DNA of 64,000 nt, taken from sequence record PP925844.1. One strand, 5' to 3'. A program made the translations under genes and the position numbers. Origin of the DNA: Escherichia phage Elenatom. The notes under the pieces are model-generated. The model was not told the origin of the DNA. It made no database searches and saw only the letters and a program-made list of their open reading frames with translations. Positions 57,495-58,161 of the stretch are shown in pieces; within the stretch, counting starts at the first letter, position 1, and the number at the start of each line of letters is the position of its first letter.

Positions 57495-57712
57495 GTAACC
57501 TTTAAGCAGTATTCTTCTACATGCTGTTTACGACCTTTCTTATCAATAAAGGTATATTCAACGAATGTTCCAATGTAGTCTTTATCTACATCATGCGGAC
57601 TATTAATTGGACATTTAGTACGGCAAATGCGTTCCCATTGACGAATAATTACTGCTTTATTCTTTGGGTCATATGGATGTGGATAATGTATATTCATAAT
57701 AACGGTTCCCAA
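57485..57712 (-). CDS. hypothetical small protein
   Basis: 75-aa ORF. Confidence 0.45.
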   Translation of the reverse strand: MGTVIMNIHYPHPYDPKNKAVIIRQWERICRTKCPINSPHDVDKDYIGTFVEYTFIDKKGRKQHVEEYCLKVTWL

Positions 57713-58161
57713 TCAACAATCACAATTTCTAATTTAGAGGAATATGTATCTAAAATCCCCTCAATAATATCCCAGTTCCCTTTACCTATGCCTGCACCAA
57801 TCCTAGGCATATAGATTGTAGGTTTAATCAGTTTATTTTCACCAAACTCATTTAATTCTAACATACAATTCATTAAAGCGGAATACTCAAAATTTGGCCC
57901 TGATTGAAATTGAGTATAAAGGTTGAAGCAATACGCTTTATGAGTCCTAAAGTATTTTTCATAGACTGAGTAAGAACCGAGTTTAGTTACATCACCCCAT
58001 TCAGTCTGTAATTTATCAGCTTCCAAAATTTTAGGGAAAGCTTTGGTTAATTGACCCGCTACGCCTGAACCCATAGTATGAAAACAATTGCATCCATGCG
58101 CAATATTTTTACCTTCAGCGAAAAGGGCGACAATATCGCCCTTGATATATTTTACAATCAT
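57694..58161 (-). CDS. macro-domain-like protein (possible ADP-ribose binding/hydrolase)
   Basis: 155 aa; HGCNC...GSGVAG resembles macro-domain nucleotide-binding loops. Confidence 0.45.
   Translation of the reverse strand: MIVKYIKGDIVALFAEGKNIAHGCNCFHTMGSGVAGQLTKAFPKILEADKLQTEWGDVTKLGSYSVYEKYFRTHKAYCFNLYTQFQSGPNFEYSALMNCMLELNEFGENKLIKPTIYMPRIGAGIGKGNWDIIEGILDTYSSKLEIVIVDWEPLL

Follow-up and report, generated by a model that had tools for sequence, protein, structure and literature searches.

The open reading frame (ORF) located at positions 57694..58161 on the minus strand of a 64,000-nucleotide stretch of DNA from Escherichia phage Elenatom (sequence record PP925844.1; the whole stretch is referred to as the window in the following) is the orthologue of the phage T4 gene tk.4, which was lately renamed adfM (anti-DarT factor, macrodomain). 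It starts with ATG and encodes 155 amino acids followed by a stop codon. The encoded protein, Tk.4/AdfM, is considered likely to protect phage DNA against DarTG2 by hydrolysing thymidine-linked ADP-ribose, using a glutamine-based chemistry like that of SCO6735 from Streptomyces coelicolor. The role of T4 tk.4 against DarTG2 is already known from published genetics; what we infer here is that the T4-type protein is a hydrolase and that its mechanism is Gln-based.

Orthology to T4 tk.4 follows from near-identity together with conserved gene order. The protein is of the same length as T4 Tk.4 (NP_049723) and identical to it in 154 of 155 residues, the sole difference being a serine at position 87 where T4 possesses a proline, and the gene order regB - vs.1 - vs - tk.4 - tk.3 - ... 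- tk is that of T4 (NC_000866). The 2.1-kb stretch around tk.4 was found to be 99.9% identical to Escherichia phage MLP2 and to match 697 phage records, most of them from Tequatrovirus-type phages of Escherichia and Shigella. The function of the T4 gene was reported in November 2025 in the HIDEN-SEQ preprint, in which a T4 transposon library was applied to DarTG2-expressing E. coli: tk.4 was identified as the only T4 gene required specifically on DarTG2 hosts, its insertions being depleted when DarTG2 was present, and a clean tk.4 knockout rendered T4 DarTG2-sensitive, whereupon the gene was named adfM; the authors also noted a structural similarity of T4 Tk.4 to DarG from M. tuberculosis (bioRxiv 10.1101/2025.11.20.689424). 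The present finding hence mainly tidies the record, as the gene that had been flagged is a known T4 gene whose role was assigned genetically in 2025.

Macro-domain class and predicted ADP-ribose pocket

A sequence-only reading of the window had pointed to this ORF, which is present exactly as described there, and had quoted two loops, HGCNC and GSGVAG, which were located to residues 22-26 and 31-36 respectively; the observation as a whole goes far beyond chance. That reading treated the macro domain as an open question; however, the gene was already annotated. RefSeq labels T4 Tk.4 as 'phosphatase; contains A1pp phosphatase motif', many other GenBank records carry the labels 'macro domain protein', 'phosphatase' or 'Poa1p-like family protein', and the name given by the Joint Genome Institute (JGI) is 'O-acetyl-ADP-ribose deacetylase'. 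The public labels macro domain and Poa1p-like therefore place the macro-domain nature of the protein within annotation that has existed for years. Both the profile search and the predicted fold support it: the Pfam Macro family PF01661 was matched with 27.9 bits, above its gathering cut-off of 22, at an E value of 2.4e-6 and over profile positions 2-113 of 118, PHROG 335 was matched with an E value of 1.9e-64, and the AlphaFold2 model, computed from a family alignment of 92 sequences, reached a mean predicted local distance difference test (pLDDT) score of 95.4 and a predicted template modelling (pTM) score of 0.91. Within this model strands alternate with helices as expected, and the three-layer alpha/beta/alpha fold with its mixed central beta-sheet is recovered.

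Among macro domains, the protein is assigned to the TARG1/DarG/Poa1p ('ALC1-like') class rather than to MacroD, since structural neighbours and sequence searches both point there. A Foldseek search with the model returned top 20 matches that all came from the same five proteins, and the sequence searches were in agreement. The nearest structural neighbours are of the TARG1/ALC1-like class, not MacroD, PARG or viral Mac1. Using phmmer, BT1257 was found with an E value of 8e-10 and Poa1p with 2e-6, with SCO6735, DarG and TARG1 following between about 1e-4 and 5e-3, while a search with the family profile placed all five of these proteins between 1e-18 and 5e-11. A MacroD-type mechanism was considered and rejected, given the invariant Ala35 at the position of the MacroD catalytic Asp and the lower fold scores; likewise, the MacroD motifs Nx(6)GG[V/L/I]D and G[V/I/A][Y/F]G with the catalytic Asp are absent from Tk.4.

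The predicted ADP-ribose pocket is built from two loops, both of which are conserved in the family alignment, where ten columns are invariant altogether. In loop 1 the residue N25 is kept in 91 of 92 family members and C26, G33 and A35 in all 92. N25 aligns with N22 of T. aquaticus DarG (TaqDarG) and with N23 of the PhiKZ protein gp104, and the exchanges N22A in TaqDarG and N23A in gp104 are both reported to lower de-ADP-ribosylation (for gp104: PMC13309987). In loop 2, P119, I121 and G124 are invariant across the family, and the position of TARG1 D125 (aligned with the TARG1 segment PRIGCGLDRLQW) is occupied by G126 here and by Ala or Gly family-wide.

The residue on which the mechanistic assignment turns is Q84, the last residue of an N-x-Y-T-Q motif in which N80, Y82 and Q84 do not vary across the 92 sequences. 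The family-profile alignment to the sequences of Protein Data Bank (PDB) entries places Q84 on the Gln of BT1257 (within 'NMIGQ') and on K84 of TARG1, and with MAFFT it falls on the 'FPTK' lysine of DarG and PhiKZ gp104, so that 'YTQ' stands in place of 'PTK'. For the BT1257 loop the nine-sequence MAFFT alignment differs from that of HMMER, and the HMMER profile together with the published structure-based alignment was relied on. The key catalytic residue of DarG and TARG1 is a lysine, namely K80 in TaqDarG, where K80A is inactive, and K84 in TARG1, where it is paired with D125. In SCO6735 the residue equivalent to K84/K80 is Gln85, and both Q85A and Q85E are inactive; nevertheless, SCO6735 strips DarT-made thymidine-ADP-ribose from DNA at a higher rate than either DarG or TARG1, and E. 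coli is rescued by it from DarT; a water-mediated mechanism involving a positioned water molecule was proposed. Given the invariant Q84 at the Lys position and the Gly or Ala at the position of TARG1 Asp125, a combination also seen in SCO6735, the chemistry of T4 AdfM is, by analogy, probably SCO6735-like rather than of the Lys-dependent DarG/TARG1 type.

Four of the invariant residues set the family apart: C26, D49, N80 and Y82 are found in 92 of 92 Tk.4-family sequences, whereas DarG, TARG1 and BT1257 depart from them in the corresponding columns. The literature consulted on these macrodomains gave neither mutational data nor a role for D49 and Y82. Judged from their conservation, the four residues may be part of a lysine-independent active site.

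Proposed mechanism and its alternatives

The mechanism proposed starts from the infection of a cell that carries the toxin-antitoxin defence DarTG2, whose toxin, DarT2, attaches ADP-ribose to thymidines of the single-stranded phage DNA, by which replication is blocked. Tk.4/AdfM would then most likely bind the ADP-ribose moiety in its conserved pocket, formed by loop 1 (HGCNC...GSGVAG) and loop 2 (PRIGAGIGKGNW), and most likely cleave the N-glycosidic bond between ribose and thymine, whereby normal DNA would be restored. The target of Tk.4 would thus be the product of the toxin and not the toxin itself, as the C-terminal DarT-binding domain of DarG has no place in this protein.

A number of points weigh against this proposal. 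The literature yielded no biochemical assay of T4 Tk.4, and the authors of the preprint put enzymatic removal no higher than 'seems likely' (bioRxiv 10.1101/2025.11.20.689424). The residues that define catalysis in TARG1 (K84/D125) and in DarG (K80) are missing from Tk.4. The Tk.4 family also lacks the 'mobile loop' of the SCO6735 subclass, which is longer by five residues, and the analogy to SCO6735 is therefore incomplete. Furthermore, Tk.4 is slightly acidic (15 Lys and Arg versus 17 Asp and Glu), whereas the DNA groove of SCO6735 is strongly electropositive. The sequence similarity to yeast Poa1p, which includes the common H-x-C-N-C loop, makes a small-molecule substrate possible. Finally, as far as the protein of this very phage is concerned, P87S lies beside Q84 and is private to the window: among 50,697 phage records, even the closest match is one mismatch off (99.8% identity at the DNA and 99.4% at the protein level), and the family consensus at position 87 is Pro (63 of 92 sequences).

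Some of these points would suit a non-catalytic protection, in which Tk.4 either inhibits DarT2 by binding to it or binds ADP-ribosylated DNA and so enables bypass by the replisome or repair machinery. The missing DarG/TARG1 lysine and TARG1 aspartate as well as the missing enzymology of the T4 protein are compatible with such a role, and other anti-DarT factors, namely AdfA and AdfB, are indeed stoichiometric toxin inhibitors which bind DarT2. We nevertheless regard it as improbable, as the whole pocket is strictly conserved (Q84, N25 and both glycine loops), a pattern typical of an enzyme, as the Gln-type homologue SCO6735 is a highly active thymidine-ADP-ribose hydrolase and as Tk.4 possesses no counterpart of the DarT-binding C-terminal domain of DarG. 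Little probability is likewise given to the idea that the main task of Tk.4 is the hydrolysis of a small molecule, i.e. ADP-ribose-1''-phosphate (Appr-1''-p) or O-acetyl-ADP-ribose, with the DarTG2 phenotype being secondary. This is implied by the older annotations and kept alive by the Poa1p-like H-x-C-N-C loop; however, the only phenotype found is DarTG2-specific, and the Poa1p residue that aligns with Q84 is a Ser instead of a Gln. T4 is not known to possess a Tpt1/KptA-type source of Appr-1''-p, which weighs against a small-molecule role as well.

The remaining alternatives connect the macro domain to other ADP-ribosylation events. The sequence-only reading had named two ADP-ribosyltransferases, ModA and ModB, in the same window and had proposed that the macro domain could reverse or tune ADP-ribosylation made by the phage. 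The two transferases are indeed encoded, at 11322..11924 and 11921..12544 (both minus strand), where PHROG 832 'RNA polymerase ADP-ribosylase' was matched with E values of 2.8e-33 and 5e-42; close matches of both ORFs in other phage records are labelled modA/modB, and a Pfam scan of the two found no family. The co-occurrence of tk.4 and modA/modB in one genome, and the consideration that an eraser could in principle give temporal control, would speak for an action of Tk.4 on the host proteins modified by Alt, ModA and ModB, or on ModB-linked RNAylation. This is held to be very improbable. Alt, ModA and ModB are CTX-type arginine-specific transferases, and Arg-linked ADP-ribose is removed by hydrolases of the ARH1/DraG type. 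TARG1-like macrodomains do not reverse it; their substrates are Asp/Glu esters, O-acetyl-ADP-ribose, phosphate-linked nucleic-acid ends and thymidine-ADP-ribose (PMC8120803, PMC8883491). In addition, the two gene families are distributed differently: Tk.4-like genes are nearly three times as widespread as ModB-like genes (2,754 versus 1,010 records), the latter being mostly found in enterobacterial phages (of Escherichia, Klebsiella, Shigella, Enterobacter, Yersinia and Salmonella), and many phage groups with the macrodomain have few or no ModB-like genes. As tk.4 was moreover depleted only with DarTG2 present, reversal of phage-made ADP-ribosylation is unsupported, and the eraser idea was rejected on linkage chemistry and distribution.

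The same reading had also offered that host ADP-ribose-based defence signalling might be countered. Here, the countering of a defence is right in essence, since T4 tk.4 acts against DarTG2, but the signalling part is not, as what is countered is the modification of DNA by DarT2 and not a signal molecule derived from ADP-ribose. A wider version of this idea, namely that Tk.4 degrades ADP-ribose-derived immune messengers (Thoeris gcADPR, His-ADPR) or reverses other nucleic-acid ADP-ribosylation such as that by RNA-targeting ADP-ribosyltransferases, be it besides or instead of DarT2 activity, is again thought to have scarcely any chance of being correct. No data in its support were found, and the nearest structural relatives of Tk.4 are glycohydrolases of macromolecule-linked ADP-ribose rather than signal-binding macro domains. 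The CmdTAC paper describes an mRNA ADP-ribosyltransferase system that gives robust defence against T-even phages; these phages are hence evidently unprotected from it. The hydrolysis of thymidine-linked ADP-ribose on phage DNA thus continues to be the explanation which we prefer.

Distribution, gene neighbourhood and a second anti-DarT locus

Relatives of Tk.4 were detected by tblastn in 2,754 of 50,697 phage records, i.e. in about 5% of sequenced phages, among them T4-like, FelixO1-like, Pseudomonas, Vibrio, Acinetobacter and Aeromonas phages. Relatives of the DarG-type PhiKZ protein gp104 were found in 276 phage records, which, among the matches listed, belong largely to phages of Pseudomonas and Erwinia whose genomes exceed 200 kb. 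The comparison of 2,754 with 276 records suggests that the Tk.4 type is the commoner phage answer to thymidine ADP-ribosylation. In Vibrio phage Pylo (PQ768830.1), the Tk.4-like gene adjoins a gene labelled ribose-phosphate pyrophosphokinase, a hint that, in some phages, the release of ADP-ribose is tied to the salvage of nucleotides or NAD.

Bacterial relatives were found at more than 527 loci, spread over more than 500 genomes from many phyla, in a scan of one genome per species; motif, length and neighbourhood were evaluated for the best 80 of these loci. The T/S-Q motif is kept in 78 of the 80, and about 70 are 150-160 amino acids long by predicted start and therefore single-domain proteins. 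A DarT2-like gene was found within 6 kb of none of the 80 in a tblastn search of limited sensitivity using P. aeruginosa DarT2 as the one query.

Somewhat short of even confidence, we suggest that T4-type AdfM is not a captured DarG but part of a third, very large ALC1-like subclass, which would share the Gln at the catalytic position with SCO6735 and the short mobile loop with TARG1/DarG, and would be marked further by invariant C26, D49, N80 and Y82 of its own and by stand-alone genes for proteins of about 150 amino acids. On at least two occasions, phages would then have taken up a general enzyme of 'DNA ADP-ribose repair' that works without the lysine, independently of the DarG-type AdfM of PhiKZ. 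If this were true, the substrate range may exceed that of DarG, including for example protein Asp/Glu-ADP-ribose as for SCO6735, and the enzyme may blunt more than one ADP-ribosylating defence.

The positions of tk.4, its pocket elements and its flanking signals are given in Table 1.

Table 1. Positions within the window of tk.4 / adfM, its predicted functional elements and nearby sequence signals
Feature	Position	Strand	Remark
tk.4 / adfM coding sequence	57694..58161	-	stand-alone macro domain; no further domain
Loop 1 of predicted ADP-ribose pocket, HGCNCFHTMGSGVAG, residues 22-36	58054..58098	-	holds HGCNC, GSGVAG and N25
NLYTQ motif, residues 80-84	57910..57924	-	Q84 at catalytic-Lys position of TARG1 (K84) / DarG (K80)
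P87S, codon 87 = TCA (Ser), T4 = Pro	57901..57903	-	loop directly after Q84, three positions on
Loop 2 (phosphate-binding, predicted), PRIGAGIGKGNW, residues 119-130	57772..57807	-	G126 at TARG1 D125 position
ATGA overlap, vs stop (TGA) / tk.4 start (ATG)	58158..58161	-	from sequence; same 4-nucleotide overlap in T4 annotation
ATGA overlap, tk.4 stop (TGA) / tk.3 start (ATG)	57694..57697	-	from sequence; same overlap in T4 annotation
Best sigma-70-like promoter match, TTTACT-17-TATAAT with extended TG	59534..59562	-	upstream of regB; weak

A scan for promoters and terminators across 57000..60200 revealed 10 promoter-like sites as compared to 11.2 expected from shuffled sequence. As there is no excess, no dedicated tk.4 promoter can be claimed. 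The best promoter match, upstream of regB, might conceivably mark the start of a leftward regB-vs.1-vs-tk.4 transcript, and no minus-strand terminator-like site was found between this match and tk.4 within the scanned region. Taken together with the ATGA overlaps on both sides of the gene, this suggests that tk.4 is co-transcribed, and possibly translationally coupled, with vs and tk.3. The terminator scan also called, on the plus strand, a GC-rich hairpin with an 8-bp stem (AAGGGCGACAATATCGCCCTT) at 58123..58143, within the first 40 nucleotides of tk.4; as an inverted repeat it should fold in the mRNA as well, but it codes for the conserved KGDIVAL segment and may be incidental. Two neighbours were assigned to families without an evident link to ADP-ribose: tk.3 (57485..57697, minus strand) matches Pfam DUF7202 at full length (E 1.6e-38), and vs.1 (58492..59037, minus strand) carries a lytic transglycosylase SLT domain (25.1 bits versus a cut-off of 21.3).

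T4 gene 61.2 (adfA) encodes the other anti-DarT factor of this genomic region; its orthologue in the window, at 18292..18923 on the minus strand, looks disrupted. Compared with T4, it lacks 10 bp ('TTGACATCTC') near 18637, and the loss causes a frameshift and a premature TAA at 18620..18618. What is left is an N-terminal ORF of 101 amino acids (18618..18923) and a C-terminal part in another frame, listed at 18292..18486; the identity to T4 amounts to 55% in the N-terminal and 84% in the C-terminal half. No phage record was found to be at least 99% identical over the stretch 18292..18923, and the disruption could reflect either a genuine pseudogene or a mistake in the assembly. An extra ORF of 119 amino acids (17931..18290, minus strand) follows immediately downstream of the split gene. 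It ends in the C-terminal peptide of T4 gp61.2, 'SIDDQIFNAFMNRG', and this suggests that adfA was partly duplicated or has a paralogue here.

Comparison with known systems

The counterpart closest to the gene described here is T4 tk.4/adfM itself: it is the same gene, resides between vs and tk.3 with the same 4-nucleotide overlaps, and its product differs by P87S alone. A second T4 factor, AdfN (T4 gene 30.3), works against DarTG1 and is comparable insofar as it is an orphan, 'antitoxin-like' eraser of DNA ADP-ribosylation in the same phage; however, it adopts the unrelated NADAR fold, is specific for the guanosine-ADP-ribose made by DarT1 and provides no protection against DarTG2 (PMC11825919).

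Of the structurally characterized proteins, BT1257 from Bacteroides is the closest solved relative of Tk.4 (PDB 5E3B and 2FG1/2AFC for SCO6735 and BT1257). It is 54% identical to SCO6735, which is also known to act on protein Asp/Glu-ADP-ribose, and both share with Tk.4 the Gln at the position of the catalytic Lys. They differ from it in the mobile loop, which in SCO6735 and BT1257 is five residues longer than in TARG1 and DarG and to which the authors of the SCO6735 work tied the high activity of this subclass on DNA: against the Tk.4 profile BT1257 shows a 6-residue insertion, whereas TARG1 aligns there ungapped. Human TARG1/OARD1 (PDB 4J5S) in turn depends on the K84/D125 dyad, in place of which Tk.4 possesses Q84 and G126.

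DarG from T. aquaticus and M. tuberculosis (PDB 5M31/5M3E/5M3I) is 18-22% identical to Tk.4, and the residue equivalent to its K80 is Gln in the phage protein. DarG comprises about 340 amino acids including the C-terminal DarT-binding domain, whereas the 155 residues of Tk.4 leave no such domain. In line with this, the NCBIfam DarG equivalog reached 30.4 bits as compared to a cut-off of 250, matching only profile positions 2-146 of 338. In the window, neither a second macro domain nor a DarT2-like sequence was found, the latter by tblastn at E values up to 1 with P. aeruginosa DarT2 as the one query. Tk.4 would thus work like the DarG macrodomain while standing outside the DarG family, and we infer that a stand-alone macrodomain was recruited here and not an antitoxin captured.

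The comparison is of practical relevance for PhiKZ gp104, which was independently named AdfM and was reported to remove DarT2-made ADP-ribose from DNA in vitro (Cell Rep 2026, PMC13309987). Like Tk.4, it is a stand-alone phage macrodomain that counters DarTG2. Its sequence, obtained by translating the construct printed in that report, is of the DarG type, as it carries the Lys motif 'FPTKDNW' and matches M. tuberculosis DarG with an E value of 9e-25, whereas Tk.4 is of the Gln type; none of BT1257, TARG1, SCO6735 and Poa1p was matched by gp104 at E <= 1, and the identity of gp104 to the protein of the window is 20% (BLASTP E 0.002), the two belonging to different subclades. PMC13309987 makes no mention of T4 Tk.4, and the name AdfM hence stands for two proteins from different macrodomain subclades. 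To transfer the mechanism, or a Lys-to-Ala exchange as the catalytically dead mutant, from DarG or PhiKZ gp104 to T4 AdfM would mislead, because the T4 protein is of another subclade and holds a Gln where the catalytic Lys would be expected; the residues relevant in T4 AdfM are Q84 and N25.

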